Source: a virus. From it: a DNA stretch of 64,000 nucleotides. A program made the position numbers and the translations under genes. Each line of letters opens with the position of its first letter. Within the stretch, counting starts at the first letter, position 1. Below, one piece after another: positions 43,029 through 58,658 of this stretch. The notes beneath the pieces were generated by a model, which did no database searches, was not told where the DNA came from, and saw nothing but the letters and a program-made list of their open reading frames with translations. The DNA lies in the IMG/VR virus record IMGVR_UViG_3300037515_000591, positions 1 to 64,000 of that record. The stretch is one strand, 5' to 3'.

Positions 43029-43586
43029 ATGCCCGAAGACACGCCACAGGGAGAGGAGCAGCGCGAGATGCTGTCCTTCACCGAGGCTGCCGAACGGCTC
43101 GTCAATGACGGCATCGCCCTGAACATGACCGCCGAAGGACTACGGCGACTCGCCCGTGACCGAAACTCCGGCTGGCCCATCGGCCCCAATGACTACCGGG
43201 TCGTCGGCAAGACGCGGATGCTCCCCTACGAACTGCTCGCGCCGTACATGCGGGAGCGCTATGGGAAGCGGCGAGGGCGTGGCCCGGACACCAAGAAGCG
43301 CAGCCCCAAGTCCCAGTCGCAAGGAGATCCCATGTCCACGACCGTTGATCCGCGTATCGCGATCCTGTCCGCCCTGAACGATCCGCCGTACAACGAGACG
43401 GCCGAGAAGCGGTGCGTGCCGTGGGATGAAGCGGCGCAGCTCCTCAACGCCTACCGGGCGGCCGTCATCCGTGAGGCCGCTGACGCTGTGGCGCAGTTGA
43501 TCGCCGATGGAGAGCACGACCCGGACTGTCTCGTCGACGAGCTGCGCCACCTGGCGCGCAAGACGCCCGAGGTGCGGGATGTCTGA
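43029..43586 (+). CDS. HTH DNA-binding protein (excisionase/MerR-like N-terminus) with possible nested in-frame product
   Basis: LSFTEAAERLVNDGIALNMTAEGLRRLARD; internal AAGGAGA-N5-ATG at 43332 in the same frame. Confidence 0.55.
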   Translation: MPEDTPQGEEQREMLSFTEAAERLVNDGIALNMTAEGLRRLARDRNSGWPIGPNDYRVVGKTRMLPYELLAPYMRERYGKRRGRGPDTKKRSPKSQSQGDPMSTTVDPRIAILSALNDPPYNETAEKRCVPWDEAAQLLNAYRAAVIREAADAVAQLIADGEHDPDCLVDELRHLARKTPEVRDV

Positions 43587-43767: not shown

Positions 43768-43794
43768 AAGCCCCGACCGATGTGGTCGGGGCTT
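43768..43794. terminator. terminator hairpin
   Basis: 11-bp stem AAGCCCCGACC/GGTCGGGGCTT, 5-nt loop, followed by TCGCTT; 13 nt after plus-strand stop. Confidence 0.6.
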
Positions 43795-43890: not shown

Positions 43891-43927
43891 CACCGGGCGC
43901 CCGCTCTGGGGGAGCGGGCGCCCGGTG
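43891..43927. terminator. 16-bp perfect hairpin
   Basis: CACCGGGCGCCCGCTC tgggg GAGCGGGCGCCCGGTG. Confidence 0.55.
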
Positions 43928-44007: not shown

Positions 44008-44271
44008 TCAGGATGCCAGACCCGGGCGCTGCTCGTCGGCGATTGCGCGGGCGGCGGCGTGCAGTACGTCGGCCGGCAGGATGACGGCCTGCTCCCCGGG
44101 GCCGATGCCCGCGCCGTGCTGGGCGAGTTCGCGGGCCGAGATGTTCGGTACGCCGGGCACCTTGCCGATGATCAGGTAGTCGCCAGTGTCGAGGGCGAGG
44201 ACGGCCGGGCAACTGCTCTGTCCGGTGCAGCGCTCGGCGGGGCTGCTGCCGTAGCGGCGGACGATCTTCAC
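44008..44271 (-). CDS. hypothetical protein (87 aa)
   Basis: GTG 44271 in GTGA overlap; upstream part of the track ORF is Arg/Pro junk. Confidence 0.5.
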   Translation of the reverse strand: MKIVRRYGSSPAERCTGQSSCPAVLALDTGDYLIIGKVPGVPNISARELAQHGAGIGPGEQAVILPADVLHAAARAIADEQRPGLAS

Positions 44272-45173
44272 GACTGCTCCTTGGCCGGGTTGAGGATCGC
44301 GGTGTGGAGTTCGGCGAGCCGGATATCCCACCAGCGGGATACGGATGTGCCGATGGGTGGCGGTCCGGTTTTGACCCAGCGTTCGTACAGGTCGATGACG
44401 CGGGACACGTCGGCTTCGGCGCTGCGGTGGAGAGCGGCGAGGACTGCGGCGGTCTGCCGGTCCACGGTGGGCGCGGGCTGCTCGCGGAGTCCGGCCGGGG
44501 CGGGCGCTGGCGTGCCCGCGTCGCCGTACAGCAGCCAGTCCACCGACACATCTGCCGCTTCGGCGATGAGCACCATGTCGAGGCTGGTGGGGCGGTGGCC
44601 GAGATGGAGGATGCCGGGCAGTCGGCGGCTGATGTGTGGGGCGAGTTGGCGGCCTGGTGCGGGCAGTGTGAGGCTGCGGATGCGGGCGGTTCGCGCGGCC
44701 GTGGTGTCGGTCGCTTGGGTCGGGGCCGGGCCGGACGCGGGCTCGTCGAGGGCGCGGATGGTGTCGCAGGGCCAGGTGGTGTCGTAGCCGAGGCGCTGTC
44801 CGTGCGCGCAGTAGACGCAGGTGTCGCCGTGGCTGGCCTTCCGGTGCAGGGCGCAGACGCGGGCGACGGCGGCCTCGGCCTGCTCGGCGCGCTGCTCGGC
44901 CTCTTTGCGGAGCCGGTCGTGGTTCTTGCACGCGGTCATCGCCGTGTCTGCGGCTCGGGCTGCGAGCTGGCGTCCGTACTGCTCCCACTCGCGGGCATCG
45001 GTGAGGTCGGTGCGGAGGCGTTCGGCCTCGCGTCCGGCGGCCTCGGCGCGGGCGAGCTGGTCGTGCAGGTGGTCGAGGTCGTCGCTGGTCATCTCGTCCA
45101 GCTTCAGCCGGGCCGGCGGGTGTGGCTGGGCTTCGGCCGCGCGGCGGTCGAGCGCTGCGGGTTCTTGGTTCAT
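44268..45173 (-). CDS. coiled-coil / Cys-His / HTH-like protein
   Basis: ATG 45173 in ATGA overlap; HGDTCVYCAH; SLDMVLIAEAADVSVDWLLYG HTH-like. Confidence 0.55.
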   Translation of the reverse strand: MNQEPAALDRRAAEAQPHPPARLKLDEMTSDDLDHLHDQLARAEAAGREAERLRTDLTDAREWEQYGRQLAARAADTAMTACKNHDRLRKEAEQRAEQAEAAVARVCALHRKASHGDTCVYCAHGQRLGYDTTWPCDTIRALDEPASGPAPTQATDTTAARTARIRSLTLPAPGRQLAPHISRRLPGILHLGHRPTSLDMVLIAEAADVSVDWLLYGDAGTPAPAPAGLREQPAPTVDRQTAAVLAALHRSAEADVSRVIDLYERWVKTGPPPIGTSVSRWWDIRLAELHTAILNPAKEQS

Positions 45174-45343
45174 GGGGTGCTGCTCCTGGGGTCGTCGAAG
45201 CCGGGTTCGTCCCAGGCGACGGCTCCGCACTCGCGGCCGTTGATGATGAGTGGCGCGGCGTGCGGGCCCTGGTGGCCGGCGGGCTGGGTGCAGGTGGATT
45301 CGGGGTAGTCGTAGTGCGGGAGGCCGCACAGACGGGCGGTCAT
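45170..45343 (-). CDS. hypothetical 57-aa protein
   Basis: ATG 45343 in ATGA overlap. Confidence 0.4.
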   Translation of the reverse strand: MTARLCGLPHYDYPESTCTQPAGHQGPHAAPLIINGRECGAVAWDEPGFDDPRSSTP

Positions 45344-50243: not shown

Positions 50244-50282
50244 CGGTCCTTCTCTCGGTCGTGCCGTTCGGAGGTACGAGGC

Positions 50283-50306
50283 GGGGGCGCCGCGGTGGGC
50301 GCCCCC
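50283..50306 (-). terminator. hairpin between the 261-aa gene and the replication gene
   Basis: perfect 9-bp stem GGGGGCGCC/GGCGCCCCC, 6-nt loop, 10 nt beyond stop at 50316. Confidence 0.5.
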
Positions 50307-50315
50307 GATCCGTGG

Positions 50316-52991: not shown

Positions 52992-53042
52992 GGCATGGCT
53001 GAATTGCCAGGTCAGGGAGGCCCTCTGCCGTGCACCCATGAT

Positions 53043-53058
53043 GCCACATCCATGTGGC
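53043..53058. promoter_or_regulatory. operator-like palindrome 1
   Basis: GCCACAT-CC-ATGTGGC in the divergent intergenic region. Confidence 0.5.
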
Positions 53059-53096
53059 CACTGTGGTGTGGCTTTCGAAGTTCCGCTTCCGTGTGG

Positions 53097-53110
53097 CCAC
53101 ATCGATGTGG
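53097..53110. promoter_or_regulatory. operator-like palindrome 2
   Basis: CCACAT-CG-ATGTGG, 54 bp from palindrome 1; both share TGTGGCCAC. Confidence 0.5.
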
Positions 53111-53122
53111 GAACATGCCGAC

Positions 53123-53347
53123 ATGCCCGCCACCGAAGAGACCCTCGACCGCCTGCGGAAGGCAGTCCGCGCCAAGACGGCCGCCGAGACCCGCGCCGAG
53201 AACGCCCGCGCCGCGCTCGCCATCGCCATGGCCGACGCCATAGAGGAGGGCATGCGGCAGAGCGACGTCGTGGCGATGACGGGCTACACGCGCGAGCACG
53301 TTCGCCGTCTCGTGCGTGAGGTCGAAGAGCAACGCTCCAAGTCCTGA
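53123..53347 (+). CDS. small HTH regulator
   Basis: ATG 53123; coiled-coil N-terminus then QSDVVAMTGYTREHVRRLVRE. Confidence 0.6.
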   Translation: MPATEETLDRLRKAVRAKTAAETRAENARAALAIAMADAIEEGMRQSDVVAMTGYTREHVRRLVREVEEQRSKS

Positions 53348-53368
53348 CACCGCTCCTCCTCTCCGTGG

Positions 53369-53393
53369 GCCCCGCACCGTGCTGGTGCGGGGC
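53369..53393. terminator. bidirectional terminator
   Basis: perfect 10-bp stem GCCCCGCACC/GGTGCGGGGC, 5-nt loop, then TTCG; between convergent stops. Confidence 0.6.
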
Positions 53394-53407
53394 TTCGTGC
53401 TGCGTGG

Positions 53408-53596
53408 TCAGCGGAGTTCGCGGATGCGTCCCGCCGTGACGCCGTACTCCAAAGCCAGCCCGGTTGCCTTCTCACCTGCGGCGAGGCGCTGTGTGATGTC
53501 GGACCGCTGCTGTGGCGTGAGCTTGGGTGTGGAGTGCTTTGGTGGCTTGGAGTTGCGGTGGCTGTTGCTCCAGCGGCGTTGGAGGTCGGTGGCCAT
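53408..53596 (-). CDS. small HTH protein
   Basis: 62 aa; LTPQQRSDITQRLAAGEKATGLALEYGVTAGRIRELR. Confidence 0.55.
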   Translation of the reverse strand: MATDLQRRWSNSHRNSKPPKHSTPKLTPQQRSDITQRLAAGEKATGLALEYGVTAGRIRELR

Positions 53597-53796
53597 CAGC
53601 GGGTTGTCTTCCGTCGGCCGCCGCCGGGTGCCCGCAGTGTCACGCCGGCTTCGAGGAGCAGTGCGCGGGTTCCGCCGTATGAGCGGCCGAGTTGGTCGGC
53701 GACGGATCGGATGGTGGCGCCTTGCGCGTACAACTCCGCGGCATGCTGGCGGACTCGTACGCGTTCGGCGCCTTTGGTGTAGGGGCGTTTCTCCAT
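53596..53796 (-). CDS. small HTH protein
   Basis: ATG 53796; AAELYAQGATIRSVADQLGRSYGGTRALLLEAGV. Confidence 0.55.
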   Translation of the reverse strand: MEKRPYTKGAERVRVRQHAAELYAQGATIRSVADQLGRSYGGTRALLLEAGVTLRAPGGGRRKTTR

Positions 53797-53829
53797 CGGG
53801 TGGTGCCTTTCTTCGTGGTGGCTGGGGGT

Positions 53830-53869
53830 CCCGGGCCTCGCGCCGGGGGGAGGGGTCGCGAGGCCCGGG
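53830..53869 (-). terminator. hairpin A of tandem pair
   Basis: perfect 13-bp stem CCCGGGCCTCGCG/CGCGAGGCCCGGG. Confidence 0.5.
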
Positions 53870-53871
53870 AG

Positions 53872-53905
53872 GGCGGTCGGCGCGTGGGGGTGCGGGCCGA
53901 CCGCC
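53872..53905 (-). terminator. hairpin B of tandem pair
   Basis: perfect 10-bp stem GGCGGTCGGC/GCCGACCGCC, 13 nt beyond stop at 53918. Confidence 0.5.
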
Positions 53906-53917
53906 GGTTCGGGTGGC

Positions 53918-54427
53918 TCAGTCGTGCTCGTAGAACTCGATCTCGATGCCGGTGCGGCGGACGGTGATGTTGGCGTGGTCGCCGAACGCATCGAGGAGGA
54001 CGTGCTCGAAGTGGCCGCCCTCGATGGCCTTCTCCAGTGCCTTGCACCGGTCGTAGCGGGCGCGGTCCGGGCCTTCGTAGGTCTCGCTGACGACCGTCCG
54101 GCACTTCGTAGCCGGGTCGACGTCGCCCCACTTCGTGGTGACCTTGCCGAGGCTGGGGTGGCCCCACATCTCCAGCTCGTCCTCGTCGGCGTCCTCGTCG
54201 GTCGTGGTCCGCACCCAAGTGCCGCAAGCACTGAAGGTGCAGGGTTCGCCGTCGTTGAAGTACGGGGTGTACTGCCGCCACCCGAACTCGACGATCGTCG
54301 GGTCGTCGAGGACCGCCTGAAGGATCGGCTGAAGCTCCTCGATCGGCTTCTGCGCTACACGGTCGGAGCCGCGGGTGATGTCGCCGTTGACAGGGATACC
54401 GAGGAAGTTGGTGGTCTGGTCGGTCAC
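53918..54427 (-). CDS. hypothetical protein
   Basis: GTG 54427 in GTGA overlap; YTPYFNDGEPCTF motif. Confidence 0.55.
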   Translation of the reverse strand: MTDQTTNFLGIPVNGDITRGSDRVAQKPIEELQPILQAVLDDPTIVEFGWRQYTPYFNDGEPCTFSACGTWVRTTTDEDADEDELEMWGHPSLGKVTTKWGDVDPATKCRTVVSETYEGPDRARYDRCKALEKAIEGGHFEHVLLDAFGDHANITVRRTGIEIEFYEHD

Positions 54428-54810
54428 TTCGTGTCTCCAGAGGGCTGGTTGAGGAGCAGGTGAGAGAGGGGCACGGTCTTGCGCTGGCTGCCGGACATCC
54501 ACGGGCGGATGGGCATGCCGTCGATGTAGTCCGCGGGGCTGGGCAGCCAGCCGAGGTCTTCGAGGACGTGCTGCTCGGCGATGAGCCGGACCGGGACCCG
54601 GACGGTGTTGCGGGTCTTGTGGACGTCGAGAGTGACTCCGAAGATCCGCTCGGCGAGGAACACGCCTTCGGTGTGGTGGTAGAGGGAGCGGTGGCGGACG
54701 TCGCCGATCAGGCGCTTCGAGCTGTCGAGGAACTGGTGGATCGGCAGGTACAGCTCCGGCTCACCGCCCCACTTGCGAGCGGAGGACTGGGCATGGTTGA
54801 AGGAGTTCAT
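54424..54810 (-). CDS. hypothetical His-rich protein
   Basis: 128 aa; IHQFLDSSK...RHRSLYHHTEG pattern seen in many phage proteins (family name not recalled with confidence). Confidence 0.55.
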   Translation of the reverse strand: MNSFNHAQSSARKWGGEPELYLPIHQFLDSSKRLIGDVRHRSLYHHTEGVFLAERIFGVTLDVHKTRNTVRVPVRLIAEQHVLEDLGWLPSPADYIDGMPIRPWMSGSQRKTVPLSHLLLNQPSGDTK

Positions 54811-55172
54811 GCGGCACCCGACCCGGCGTGTTCGGGGCAGTAGTCGTCGCCGTCGTCGGTGTGCTCCCAGCCCCCGTGCTCGACGAGGTGGGTGCGGGCC
54901 ACGGCGAGCCGTTCCCTGCTGCTCATCTCGCTGCTGACCATGTAGTCGCCGGTGTTCGTGGCGCCGCAGCGGTCGCAGTAGACGGTGATCTTCGACGGGT
55001 AGCGGGGGTCGTCCATGTCGCGGACGATCGCGTTGACCATGTCGGGTGTGAGGGGCTGGGGCGTGGGGTCGGGCTGGCAGGGGACGAGGTTGGAGTGGGC
55101 GTCCTTACCGCAGCCGCAGCGGTAGCCGGTGGGGCCGTAAGCGAGCGGGTCGGGGGTTGAGGTGTCGGGCAT
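54807..55172 (-). CDS. hypothetical Cys-containing protein
   Basis: 121 aa; CGCG, CDRCG, CPEH motifs. Confidence 0.5.
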   Translation of the reverse strand: MPDTSTPDPLAYGPTGYRCGCGKDAHSNLVPCQPDPTPQPLTPDMVNAIVRDMDDPRYPSKITVYCDRCGATNTGDYMVSSEMSSRERLAVARTHLVEHGGWEHTDDGDDYCPEHAGSGAA

Positions 55173-55186
55173 CGTGATCTCCTTGA

Positions 55187-55237
55187 GGTGGTGCCCCGGC
55201 CGAATTCGCGTCGGCCGGGGCGCTTTTGTGCGGGCGG
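55187..55237. repeat. conserved hairpin element E1
   Basis: GGTG-GTGCCCCGGCCGA attcgcg TCGGCCGGGGC GCTTTTGTGCGGGCGG; stem 55193-55203/55211-55221. Confidence 0.6.
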
Positions 55238-55238
55238 A

Positions 55239-56069
55239 CTACTTGGGCATGGGCATCGAGCTGTTCGGCGGGTGCACCAGCCGGTCCAGCGACCGCCCGT
55301 CACGCACCGCGTTCCAGGTCCGCACCAGGTAGCCCATATGCCGGGACTCCGGCAGCCGCATGCTGTCCAGACGCTCCGACGTCACCCGCGCCCGCAGCGC
55401 CAGAACCGGATGTCCGAGCGGAAGCTCCGCGCCGTCGGCGATGCGCTGGAAGAACCACGTCGCCTCGTCGAGAGCGAGCGCCGAGAACAGGAAGTGCGCG
55501 GAACCGAGGACCGACTGCGGGATGTGAGGGAACGCGTTACGGGTACGCACGGCAATCTCTGCGGAGCGGCGCAGCTCGGGGCGCTCGGCGAGGAGCTGGG
55601 CGCACTCGCGGTTGGTGGCCGCGTAGTTGCCGGTGAACCGGTAATCGCCGCCGTTCCAGGCCCAGACACGGCGCAGGATCGCGGCGAGGGTGTGGGCGTT
55701 GGCTTCGCCGCGCAGGCCCATGACGTCGCCGGTGGTGCGCTTGCGGCCGGTGTCCATGGTTTCTTGGGCGGCCGGGTCGAGGCCGATGACGACGAGCATC
55801 TGCACGGTGGTGTCGGCGTCGATGACGGCGCGGAGGCGGTGCTGGCCGTCGAGGACGGTGCCGTCGGTGGCGAATTTGATGGATTCGCCGTTGAGGGTCC
55901 AGTGGCCTGCGGTCATGTCGCGGGCGTAGTCGGCGACGGCTCGGTCGCGGAGTTTGCGGTTGTGGGTGTTGGTGCGGAGCCATTCGCGGGCGAGGTCGGG
56001 GGTGACGTCGATGACGACGGCGGTGGGGCCGTCGGTGTCGATGAGGGTGGGTAGGGTTTGAGCGTTCAT
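55239..56069 (-). CDS. ParB-like nuclease domain protein of DGQHR (DndB-like) type
   Basis: NRKLRDRAVADYARDM...WTLNGESIKFATDGTVLDGQHRLRAV; ATG 56069. Confidence 0.7.
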   Translation of the reverse strand: MNAQTLPTLIDTDGPTAVVIDVTPDLAREWLRTNTHNRKLRDRAVADYARDMTAGHWTLNGESIKFATDGTVLDGQHRLRAVIDADTTVQMLVVIGLDPAAQETMDTGRKRTTGDVMGLRGEANAHTLAAILRRVWAWNGGDYRFTGNYAATNRECAQLLAERPELRRSAEIAVRTRNAFPHIPQSVLGSAHFLFSALALDEATWFFQRIADGAELPLGHPVLALRARVTSERLDSMRLPESRHMGYLVRTWNAVRDGRSLDRLVHPPNSSMPMPK

Positions 56070-56086
56070 GGGTTGTTGCCTTTCGG

Positions 56087-56136
56087 GGTGGGTGCCCCGC
56101 CGGTTTCCGCCCGGCGGGGCGCTTTTGTGTGGGCGG
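56087..56136. repeat. conserved hairpin element E2
   Basis: GGTGGGTGCCCCGCCGG tttccgc CCGGCGGGGC GCTTTTGTGTGGGCGG; stem 56094-56103/56111-56120. Confidence 0.6.
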
Positions 56137-56355
56137 TCAGGCGAGGTGTTCGTTCTCGTACGCCTCCGCGGCTTCCGCAGCCCGGACCGCGAGGGCGTCT
56201 TCTGCGCACGACTTATGCGCTGGAGACCGCTTCGAGTCGCGGAGGTTCGTCGGCCGCTGGCAGTACCGGCACGGCTTCTCGGTCCACGACCAATGCGAGG
56301 CGTCACGCCAGTCGAGGAGCGGCGGCGGGTCCCGGCCCGCGGGCTCCCCGCTCAC
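56137..56355 (-). CDS. hypothetical 72-aa protein
   Basis: GTG 56355 in GTGA overlap; WTEKPCRYCQRP...HKSCAE. Confidence 0.45.
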   Translation of the reverse strand: MSGEPAGRDPPPLLDWRDASHWSWTEKPCRYCQRPTNLRDSKRSPAHKSCAEDALAVRAAEAAEAYENEHLA

Positions 56356-57038
56356 GCCAGGGCCTTGGTCGAACCGGTGCGGCGCAGCCGGTTGTCCGCG
56401 TCCGCGTTCGCCTGACGGCACGGAGGACACGGCGTCTGGCCAAGCTTGAGATGCCGCTGATAGCCGGGCCGGGTCCCGCACCGGGCGCGTCCCTCGCTGT
56501 CGATGAGGTGCGCGGGGAGGTGGCATTCCTGGCTGCGGCAGTCGGCTGTCACGGGGCCGTTCGGGGTGTGGCCGCGGTCGAGGGTGAAGCACAACTGCCG
56601 GGGTGTGTACGTCTTCCCGCGGAAGCTGACCTTCCTCGGGCCGGTCCAGGCGAGGTGCCCGCCGTACAGGCGCACGGTGTTGTCGTCGAAGATTGACTGC
56701 ATGGTGCGGGGCTTGACGGGCCGGCGGGTCTGCCCGGCTTTGACCTCGTCGGGGGTGAGGTTGCGGCGTGCAGCCTGGCGGAGCAGACCGCGGCGCTCCG
56801 CCTCCGACATGCCGCCCCACACACCGAACGCCTGCCGTGTCGCCAAAGCCCAGGCCCCGCACGCTTGAAGGACCGGACAGCCGGAGCAGATGACTTTGGC
56901 GTGGCGCGTCTGGGCGTTGGCAGCGGGTGTGGCGCCGACAGGGAAGAACAGCTCTGCGTCCTCGTCGCGACATGCCGCGGCGTCTCGCCAGTCGGTGGCG
57001 CGTTGGGTGTCGGGGGCGGCGCCGGTGTAGTTGTTCAC
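56352..57038 (-). CDS. WhiB-like Fe-S regulator fused to HNH-like/zinc-ribbon C-terminal region
   Basis: CRDEDAELFFP...AKVICSGCPVLQACGAWAL...GVWGGMSEAERR; C-terminal HLAWTGPRK...CRSQECHLPAHL and CGTRPGYQRH...CPPCR; GTG 57038 in GTGA overlap. Confidence 0.75.
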   Translation of the reverse strand: MNNYTGAAPDTQRATDWRDAAACRDEDAELFFPVGATPAANAQTRHAKVICSGCPVLQACGAWALATRQAFGVWGGMSEAERRGLLRQAARRNLTPDEVKAGQTRRPVKPRTMQSIFDDNTVRLYGGHLAWTGPRKVSFRGKTYTPRQLCFTLDRGHTPNGPVTADCRSQECHLPAHLIDSEGRARCGTRPGYQRHLKLGQTPCPPCRQANADADNRLRRTGSTKALA

Positions 57039-57316
57039 GCTTCGCCCTCCTGCTCGCGGTGTTCGTGGATGGCGTCGCGGAGCCGGTCGCACCCGGCGGC
57101 GTCGGCCGGGGGAGGCCCGAGTTCTTCGAACAGGGGGGCCAGGCGGGCGAAGTGGGCGTCGAGGTGCGCGTCGAGGTCTTCGAGGAGGAGCAGCCCGTCG
57201 GGGCCGACGTCGTGCTCCTCGTCGTCGCCCGCCCAGGCGGAGAGGATCTGCCACGCCCAAGCGAGCGCGGTGAAGACGGCGATCGTGGTGATGGTGAGGG
57301 CCTGACTGGTACTCAC
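57035..57316 (-). CDS. small membrane-anchored acidic protein
   Basis: GTG 57316 in GTGA overlap; ALTITTIAVFTALAWAWQILSAW. Confidence 0.45.
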   Translation of the reverse strand: MSTSQALTITTIAVFTALAWAWQILSAWAGDDEEHDVGPDGLLLLEDLDAHLDAHFARLAPLFEELGPPPADAAGCDRLRDAIHEHREQEGEA

Positions 57317-57852
57317 CGCGCCACCGCCAGCGGCCACACGCGGATCACGCAGCCCGGCCCGTCCAGCACATCCGGCGCGTCGGTCCCGGCGTAGTACTTG
57401 CCGAGCCGCACATACTCCACAACCCGCTGATCGTCATGCCAGACCACGCCGGTGAGGGCGTCTTCCGTACACCTGAGAATTTTGGACAAGTCGGGGAAGA
57501 CCGACGGACGTGCGGGCGCCCCGTCCCGCAGCAGGTGCGCGTTGCGGCCCGTGCGGTAATGCCCCTTGGGCCGGGCGAAGGTGAACGTCATGGACGCGGC
57601 GAGGGGGCCGTCGAGGATCTTCCAGCCGGGCACGGCGGCGGTGGCGGCGAGGGCGGCGTACTTGACGTCCTGCCGCCACGGTTTGACCTTCTTGCTGGAT
57701 TCGATCATGACGCCGTTGCCGACATGGCGTTTTGACCCCTGAGGTGCCGGGAGGCCGTGGACGGTGACGGTGATGGCGGATGAACCGGGCCGTGGCCCGG
57801 CCGCCGTGGTGGCGACCGGAACCCGCGGGGTGAACAGGGTCGGGGTGGTCAT
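57313..57852 (-). CDS. rusA: RusA-type Holliday junction resolvase
   Basis: GLPAPQGSKR, VKPWRQDV, DLSKILRCTEDALTGVVWHDDQRVVE; ATG 57852 in ATGA overlap. Confidence 0.8.
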   Translation of the reverse strand: MTTPTLFTPRVPVATTAAGPRPGSSAITVTVHGLPAPQGSKRHVGNGVMIESSKKVKPWRQDVKYAALAATAAVPGWKILDGPLAASMTFTFARPKGHYRTGRNAHLLRDGAPARPSVFPDLSKILRCTEDALTGVVWHDDQRVVEYVRLGKYYAGTDAPDVLDGPGCVIRVWPLAVAR

Positions 57853-58658
57853 GTCATGCACCACCCGGAGTCACAGGCACCATCGGCTTCGTCGAACATC
57901 GGCAGCAGGTCGACGCCGTCCGGGATGGCCTGCCGCAACGGCTTGTTGAACCGGGTCAGGTAGACGTGGTCCTTGCCCCGCTCGTCGCGGCGCTCGTTGA
58001 GGAGTTCTTCGAGCTGGCACGACTTCTCGAACAGCTCCGGCTCGTCGCGCCGCTGGTCGTGCCACGTCTCCGGGCGGTGGAACGGGCAGAAGAAACATGA
58101 GCTCTTGGGCGGCACCGGCAGGCCTGCCTCGCGGATGATGCGCGCGCAGTCGGTGCGCCTCAGGCCGAGGTCGAGCAGCGGGTAGGTGATGACCTCGTGC
58201 GGCTCGGTGCGCCGGTTGTTTGCCCGGTGGATCTCGTCGACGCTGATGCCGATGCCGATCACGGCCGGGGCCGTGGCAGTTGCGCCGCGCCGCTTCAGTT
58301 CCTTCCCGATCACCTTGATCTTGAAGTCGGCGGTGCACGACCGCTGGCCGGGCGCCCCGTTGGACATGCGGACCGGGATCGGCAGCGAGCGGGAGCCGGG
58401 CCGGGTGAGTCGGCCTATGAGGGTCTCGACGCTGCCGTCGCGCTTCACCCGGTCCAGGACGGCGAGCTCTATGCCGTGCTCGGCAGCGAACGGCCGGGCG
58501 TACTCCTCGACGTACCGGAGAGTGCTGGGGTTCTCGGAGTCGTCGCCCACGTTGGCCATGAGGAACAGGCGGAAGTCGATGCGCTCCTGTGCGGCGAGGA
58601 CGAGGAGGGCGGTGGATTGGACGCCACCGCCGTAGCTGATGGATCTCAGGACGGTCAT
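57849..58658 (-). CDS. PAPS reductase/DndC-like PP-loop ATP pyrophosphatase family protein
   Basis: N-terminal SYGGGVQSTALLVLAA PP-loop; C-terminal SSCFFCPFH and CDSGWC cysteines; 269 aa. Confidence 0.75.
   Translation of the reverse strand: MTVLRSISYGGGVQSTALLVLAAQERIDFRLFLMANVGDDSENPSTLRYVEEYARPFAAEHGIELAVLDRVKRDGSVETLIGRLTRPGSRSLPIPVRMSNGAPGQRSCTADFKIKVIGKELKRRGATATAPAVIGIGISVDEIHRANNRRTEPHEVITYPLLDLGLRRTDCARIIREAGLPVPPKSSCFFCPFHRPETWHDQRRDEPELFEKSCQLEELLNERRDERGKDHVYLTRFNKPLRQAIPDGVDLLPMFDEADGACDSGWCMT

Follow-up and report, generated by a model that had tools for sequence, protein, structure and literature searches.

The stretch of DNA analyzed here (the window) comprises the initial 64 kb of IMG/VR virus record IMGVR_UViG_3300037515_000591, a single record of 71,402 bp with 68% G+C that is assigned in IMG/VR to the class with direct terminal repeats. 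We were concerned with two related hairpin elements, E1 and E2, which bracket a gene for a ParB-like protein with a DGQHR motif in the minus-strand early operon. Most genes of the window lie on the minus strand, and the phage genes have near homologues in Streptomyces genomes and in soil metagenomes. Since a large serine integrase is encoded at genome positions 66177-67718, approximately 10 kb from the elements, the phage is temperate.

Listed in the direction of transcription, the minus-strand genes begin with a PAPS-reductase/SspD-like gene (57849-58658), followed by the RusA gene (57313-57864), a WhiB-like gene in the GC3 frame (56352-57038; Pfam PF02467, E-value 3.3e-23) and a small gene of about 72 amino acids (aa) with a CxxC...HKxC pattern (56137-56355), which ends at E2 and has homologues in L001-L003 and L082 (L numbers denote loci fetched for comparison). 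An open reading frame (ORF) of 278 aa adjoining E2 (56137-57260) was rejected as a spurious extension: the GC3 frame switches near 56400, and the WhiB-like and the ~72-aa genes stand in its place. After E2 (56087-56136) come the leader and the weak ribosome-binding site of the ParB-like gene (56070-56086; CCCGAAAGGCAACAACCC), the ParB-like gene itself (55239-56069; 276 aa; phrog_5931, unknown function), E1 (55186-55237), a conserved ribosome-binding-site part of the linker (55173-55185; AAGGAGATCAC) and a Cys-rich gene of 121 aa (54807-55172). They are followed by a DUF6915 gene (54424-54810), a 194-aa gene (53918-54502) and further small genes; the DUF6915 and 194-aa genes make up the remainder (53934-54810) of a variable cargo slot, in which the ParB-like gene is a cargo gene. 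A plus-strand gene of 74 aa without a Pfam match (53124-53347) points toward E1 and E2 and is accompanied by its own hairpin (53369-53393).

On the gene strand, E2 is composed of a stop codon, CCGCCCA, CACAAAAGC, a hairpin (56094-56120) with a perfect stem of 10 bp and the 7-nt loop GCGGAAA, and ACCCACC. E1 runs from a stop codon plus T through CCGCCCG, CACAAAAGC and a hairpin (55193-55221) with a perfect stem of 11 bp and the 7-nt loop CGCGAAT to ACCACC. Two structured elements at these positions had been reported in the preliminary description of this DNA, where they were called near-identical. Their presence and their shared flanks were found as described, but the copies are only about 80-83% identical. 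They agree in the unpaired flank beside the stop codon, in the outer six pairs of the stem and in the ACC past it; by sequence, the identical stretches are the 5' flank with the adjoining stem base on the gene strand and 9 nt at the base of the 3' stem arm. The inner stems differ and are nevertheless complementary, because two pairs flip between C-G and G-C, so that the covariation noted earlier is real. Both elements are predicted to be stable on either strand, with folding energies of -28 to -38 kcal/mol and z-scores of -2.0 to -3.0.

The two elements could in principle be unrelated generic GC-rich terminators that became alike by chance or convergence, and GC-rich hairpins with ACAAAAGC...ACC flanks do occur in host chromosomes, as do partial matches to the hairpin in unrelated phages. 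We regard this explanation as hardly credible and effectively refuted, since the unpaired flanks agree at 15 of 16 nt and the elements belong to a coherent family across phages with a common ribosome-binding-site part. The 21-nt right flank that they share (GGGGCGC, TTTTGTG, C or T, GGGCGG) has exactly two matches in the window and no more than these two in the 71,402-bp genome, and no shuffled sequence out of 100 contained two or more matches to it. A covariance model built from nine copies of the element (E) likewise gave two strong matches in the whole genome, E2 with 66.1 bits and E1 with 60.4 bits, the next different site scoring 11.5 bits; the earlier statement that no third copy exists thus holds for the entire 71.4 kb. 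An Rfam search of positions 53000-58000 revealed no family at E1 or E2, and only two matches at the level of chance (E-value about 0.5), both of them elsewhere.

Relatives of E were sought by means of the neighbouring genes and of a pattern derived from the conserved parts, and they were found in IMG/VR contigs, in a prophage of Streptomyces aureus (strain NRRL B-1941) and in soil metagenome contigs. All eight related records that were searched whole with the covariance model contained one strong match each (62-73 bits), and the fetched loci, metagenome copies included, yielded 15 distinct variants, so that the family comprises at least 15 sequence variants. Judged from these sequences, E is a family of uncultured Streptomyces phages and prophages. 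Among the cultured phages of the phage collection, only a bare, generic hairpin resemblance was seen; a megablast search for cultured relatives with 4 kb of the region gave no match, and blastn gave only short coding matches. A second, weaker model match in two relatives (21.8 bits; G001:C1:62621-62677 and G009:C1:20990-21046) corresponds to a different GC hairpin with an A-rich 5' flank (AATGAAAAC).

The architecture of the family, read on the gene strand, begins with a stop codon (usually TGA), CCGCCC(R) and (C)ACAA-n-A-n-C, and proceeds to a hairpin in which the outer pairs GCCCCG/CGGGGC are invariant and the loop ends with GAAW. The hairpin is followed by ACC(C), a short C/A-rich run, AAGGAGA-n-CAC and the start codon, and the element therefore spans the whole gap between the stop codon and the ribosome-binding site. 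The sequence of the AAGGAGA-n-CAC type follows E in nearly all relatives, before unrelated genes. The hairpin of E2 is identical to those of L007, L010, L071 and the upstream copy of L088, and the stem of E1 (GCCG/CGGC) is of the type found in L002, L003 and the downstream copy of L088. Across the family, three of the eight distinct sequences have the two inner pairs flipped (C-G to G-C or the reverse), an additional paired stem variant is present in L066, and 98.8% of the stem cells are paired, in comparison to 30-57% when the partner column is slid. This covariation favours a selected structure; because the independent events are few, it supports such a structure rather than proving it. A pseudoknot between the loop and the flank was considered and rejected, as, according to the alignment, the L001-type variants lack the necessary complementarity.

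To describe the surroundings of E, we compared 15 contexts of the element, each with flanks of 800 nt, in all 105 pairs. In 67 pairs, E alone was shared (with no more than 37 additional nt, most of them from the ribosome-binding site), whereas the upstream flank alone was shared in addition to E in seven pairs, the downstream flank alone in 11, and both flanks in none; the remaining 20 pairs gave no alignment. In the 18 pairs with one common flank, the homology broke off approximately 0-25 nt from an edge of E. At least four gene families were found upstream of E and at least seven downstream; the cargo after it includes the DGQHR protein, the 121-aa type, DUF6915, vWA/TerF-like and DUF6205-like proteins, and unknowns. 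The cargo genes gave no match to defence-system models. The vWA/TerF-like cargo (L012:4390-5076 and L001:6903-7589; Pfam PF10138, E-value 8e-59) shows that the slot holds accessory genes of widely different kinds.

Relatives with a common left side place one of the breakpoints in the window itself. The homology of L001, L002 and L003 to the window extends as far as the 3' edge of E2 (56087-56090; 95-99.7% identity for L001) and stops there, and each of these loci has a single E. In L002, a DUF6915 gene stands straight after the element; in L001 and L003 unrelated genes follow, and the homology to the window is back at 53934. In L007, L009, L010 and L012, on the other hand, E is about 85-93% identical to that of the window and the upstream genes are unrelated. 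The element thus occurs in phages with non-homologous flanks and coincides with the points at which their homology ends, as described for boundary or linker sequences of mosaic phages. On this evidence, it is well supported that E1 and E2 are the footprint of recombination at a gene-swap junction rather than a device dedicated to the ParB-like gene; as far as the compared sequences go, E is a general junction element.

The ParB-like gene itself has been found with and without the element. L088 and L089, which come from two other samples, encode a 99%-identical ParB-like protein in the same arrangement of E, gene and E, behind a different upstream gene; homology between the window and L088 starts with the first base of E2 (56136) and amounts to 96.4% through E1 and 95.4% further downstream. 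In L071, E and then the ParB-like gene are located behind yet another upstream gene. A single E stands immediately in front of a homologue of the 121-aa gene in L082, L061 and L075. L082 has no ParB-like gene between E and this homologue, and carries a homologue of the ~72-aa gene upstream. It was rejected as a perfectly empty site due to a small membrane-protein ORF between the ~72-aa homologue and E; by sequence comparison it is a nearly empty state of the ParB-like site. The presence/absence polymorphism of the segment, which the preliminary description had put forward as a check, is therefore observed in L001-L003, L082 and L088/L089.

The reverse comparison loosens the link between the element and this gene on which the preliminary description was built. 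A covariance-model search of related phages, as suggested there, did recover a family across genomes, but one that occurs once per record in the eight relatives independently of the ParB-like gene: no homologue of this gene was present anywhere in these eight whole-searched records, and E precedes at least seven different cargo genes. ParB-like homologues in L005, L084 and L091-L094 are in turn flanked by hairpins other than E. In L085-L087, a stem of the E type with a shortened 5' flank is located upstream of the ParB-like gene, and two unrelated strong hairpins are located downstream. Because E is found in eight records devoid of the ParB-like gene, and ParB-like homologues are found with unrelated hairpins, the element is not gene-specific. 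The leader of the ParB-like gene (CCCGAAAGGC...) precedes the homologues in L005, L071, L084-L089 and L091 whatever the upstream hairpin is, and the homology of L005 to the window begins at this leader (56070-56086). We also noticed that the ParB-like gene is bracketed by hairpins almost everywhere, although the hairpins differ, and that in another phage lineage (L084:4832-4950, L085:4832-4935 and L087:4832-4925) two tandem, unrelated GC hairpins of very high stability are located 3' of it, with folding energies between -62 and -68 kcal/mol for some 125 nt.

The 276-aa protein has 190 homologues with an E-value of 1e-20 or better, mostly from Streptomyces, and the DGQHR motif (residues 74-78) is invariant in 21 homologues. 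Searches against Pfam and NCBIfam (for both, even at an E-value of 5) and against PADLOC, with the ParBc and DGQHR-domain models included, gave no match for it, and a profile search of the PDB gave nothing meaningful. The AlphaFold2 model of the protein, a confident one (pLDDT 84.5), had only weak best matches in the PDB according to Foldseek, namely Noc (7ng0; E-value 0.07, probability 0.87) and sulfiredoxin (1xw3; E-value 0.32). The predicted structure is consistent with an N-terminal domain of the ParB/Srx type.

ParB-fold domains include nucleases, and the whole segment could accordingly be viewed as a self-propagating cassette, in which the protein would cut or nick E in phages that lack the gene, and repair would copy the gene in (intronless homing). 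The ParB-like gene enclosed by two copies of E has unrelated neighbours upstream in the window and in L088/L089, the homology setting in at the first base of E, which would agree with such a process; so would the E-type hairpin that precedes the ParB-like gene in four lineages (L071, L085-L087, L088/L089 and that of the window). Yet most copies of E precede other cargo, the eight E-bearing records lack the gene, and many ParB-like homologues are accompanied by unrelated hairpins. Nuclease activity is unsupported, given the weak fold match and the absence of a match in Pfam and NCBIfam, and the homology between the window and L088 also extends downstream of E1, which means that one ordinary crossover suffices. 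We consider homing improbable, and the broader version of it, in which E would be a universal landing pad and its copies portable homology arms that allow the ParB-like gene to home, during co-infection, into any E-bearing genome whatever its neighbouring genes, is slightly more improbable still. Of the earlier suggestion that the elements mark the boundaries of a mobile cassette, recombination at a shared linker is retained, and a dedicated single-gene cassette is not, as we found no evidence for it.

A palindromic site on DNA bound by a protein, serving as an operator or, for the ParB-like protein, in the manner of parS, appears about as improbable as homing. The outer half-sites GCCCCG and CGGGGC are invariant and E is a perfect inverted repeat, as would be expected of such a site. 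However, E occurs without the ParB-like gene in eight records, which is not the co-occurrence expected of parS and its ParB gene, and the changes of the inner stem that preserve pairing, the variable spacing and the mismatch that becomes a G.U pair on one strand fit a structure of RNA or of single-stranded nucleic acid better. Two further candidate functions were rejected: that of an attachment site (attP), given the distance of about 10 kb to the gene of the serine integrase and the location of E inside proviruses, and that of a substrate for RNase III processing, as the stem has only 10-11 bp.

A scan for intrinsic terminators listed both E1 and E2 on the plus strand of the window, in agreement with the earlier description of a canonical hairpin followed by a U-run. 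The plus-strand stems are 13-14 bp long if G.U pairs are counted and are followed by GCUUUUGUG, i.e. a GC-rich hairpin with a U-rich tract. The antisense fold is the more stable one in each of the 15 variants, exceeding that of the gene strand by 1.2-9.2 kcal/mol and containing 2-6 G.U pairs in comparison to 0-1; the A.C mismatch atop the L001-type stem on the gene strand, for instance, corresponds to a G.U pair on the antisense strand. The antisense tail is rich in U and G, whereas the gene strand continues after the stem with ACCCACC or ACCACC and has no U tail. Purified mycobacterial RNA polymerase needs a U-tract for termination, and tolerates imperfect ones (PMC3993855).

These features suggest that E would work as an antisense-facing terminator that lets sense transcription pass; we infer both the activity and its direction from sequence. 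The element would stop antisense transcripts that enter the early operon from a downstream gene on the opposite strand. Small opposite-strand genes are located 0.9-1.6 kb downstream of E in L003, L012, L085 and L087, and in the window, antisense transcripts heading for E1 and E2 might arise from the 74-aa plus-strand gene. On the gene strand, which lacks a U tail, RNA polymerase would mostly read through, and the hairpin might do no more than attenuate transcription or protect the ends of mRNAs. The insulation of the ParB-like gene from antisense transcription, one of the roles considered earlier, remains plausible.

Several observations weigh against this assignment. No plus-strand gene ends at E1 or E2, so that they do not close a transcription unit there, and the flanking genes are all on the minus strand; the nearest plus-strand gene (ending at 53347) is 1.8 kb away and has its own imperfect hairpin. 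Relatives have a weaker antisense U-tract (GUUCUUGUG, GCUGUUGUC), that of L085-L087 being poor, and the covariation on which the structure rests comes from few independent events. Strands rich in G and U generally fold better than those rich in C and A, so that the strand asymmetry is merely suggestive. Unrelated hairpins upstream of ParB-like homologues are also preceded, on the gene strand, by an A-rich 5' flank of the CACAC(R)AC.A.GC type. A Streptomyces chromosomal hairpin between co-directional genes also has a polarity like that of E, with an A-rich tract before the stem and a canonical U-tail on the opposite strand only. Lastly, tail-less Rho-independent terminators reportedly work in the early region of phiC31 (Ingham, Hunter and Smith 1995, NAR 23:370, as cited in PMC2602773), and a function of E on the gene strand for this reason keeps some probability.

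A chromosomal hairpin of this kind is conserved in about 13 Streptomyces species (L013, L014, L019-L027, L031, L033 and L034; e.g. L014:5552-5640), where the product of the preceding gene ends with ...VVVQSREG and that of the next one starts with ...MDQAPG.

Several of the same observations can be read as pointing to an element that acts on the gene strand, either as a tail-less intercistronic attenuator or as a hairpin for mRNA processing or stability, which would set the relative levels of the neighbouring genes, that of the ParB-like protein included. In addition to the recurrent 5' flank, the chromosomal hairpin of equal polarity and the reported phiC31 terminators, it is favoured by the position of E, always exactly between the stop codon and the ribosome-binding site, and by further gene-end hairpins of this genome that are also tail-less (50282-50307 and 43891-43927). 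Cleavage might possibly occur in the A-rich CACAAAAGC stretch, and the recombination footprint would be unchanged. Against it, the gene-strand fold is the weaker one, with A.C mismatches at positions that form G.U pairs on the antisense strand, and purified mycobacterial RNA polymerase did not terminate at hairpins without a U-tract (PMC3993855). We regard a role on the gene strand as a possibility to be taken seriously, but as the distinctly less probable one.

On balance, and with somewhat better than even confidence, we interpret E1 and E2 as copies of a conserved linker that combines an antisense-facing hairpin of the terminator type with the crossover point through which the ParB-like gene was brought in. 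At this position these mosaic phages have almost nothing but the linker in common, so that homologous recombination between co-infecting phages or prophages would cross over in E and swap the genes on either side. The mechanism is deduced from comparison of the sequences. The ParB-like gene would have entered with its own leader beside a second copy of the linker, giving the order E2, ParB-like gene, E1. A single crossover in E2, between a left arm like that of L001/L003 and a right arm like that of L088 in which the gene was already enclosed by two copies, would be sufficient; for the origin of the first duplication, an exchange between phages with E at different junctions would suffice. The genome of the window would then represent E caught duplicated around a newly acquired gene, and since E1 and E2 are direct repeats, they provide a predicted route for losing the ParB-like gene again.

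The flank ACAAAAGC (window positions 55216-55230 and 56115-56129) is present in both copies of the window and in none of the 13 other variants, and the orthologous copies of L088 have ACAAGAAC and AC-GAAC in its place. This suggests gene conversion between E1 and E2, or parallel selection for a better U-run.

Other hairpins of the genome were noted as well. Two strong ones, at 43768-43794 (stem of 11 bp) and 43891-43927 (16 bp), are located between a plus-strand gene (43029-43586) and a minus-strand gene (44268-45329) and are probably convergent terminators. An identical 28-nt hairpin with a stem of 12 bp is found close to each end of the record, at 62-89 of the window and at 71375-71402 of the genome, which fits the terminal-repeat class.

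In comparison with known systems, E comes closest to the boundary or linker sequences of phage mosaics. In the modular-exchange model for lambdoid and temperate phages, conserved sequences of this kind are located at mosaic junctions (PMC3974807). E resembles them in being short, conserved and positioned at a gene boundary, with unrelated flanks and coincident breakpoints; it differs in being a structured hairpin with covariation, in its single copy per relative genome and in marking one cargo slot. Illegitimate recombination without linkers is the common view for actinophages, and work on mycobacteriophages generally found no such sequences (PMC3314691). Against this background, the present lineage of temperate Streptomyces phages, whose variable cargo slot has a structured linker of some 50-70 nt at its junction, offers a concrete and testable case of linker-guided module exchange.

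As a transcription signal, E on the plus strand of the window is like the intrinsic terminators of actinobacteria in having a GC-rich stem followed by a U-rich tail, and unlike them in that its canonical orientation opposes the surrounding genes and that no gene on that strand ends there. With the tail-less terminators of the phiC31 early region it shares the form of an intergenic stem-loop in an early operon without a 3' U tail. The likeness is one of form, and E has in addition conserved unpaired flanks and an A-rich 5' flank. With this polarity, canonical against the genes and tail-less with them, E would be a clean substrate for tests of Streptomyces RNA polymerase at hairpins.

The SAS/ESAS elements of Cluster K mycobacteriophages, of which SAS is a 13-bp asymmetric motif with 11-19 copies per genome at translation starts and unknown function (PMC3203893), are similarly conserved intergenic motifs near the starts of unrelated genes, and ESAS adds an upstream inverted repeat with a variable spacer. 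E does not belong to them, as it has one or two copies per genome and a different sequence. The attC sites of integrons are comparable in being structured inverted repeats with conserved ends and a variable centre, positioned between exchangeable single genes. E is, however, far shorter, is free of extrahelical bases and can be explained by ordinary homologous recombination; nor does the locus have the make-up of an integron, as the only recombinase found is the large serine integrase about 10 kb away and one or two copies of E form no array. Set beside these systems, E is a structured linker marking a cargo slot that has not been previously described and has no Rfam family.

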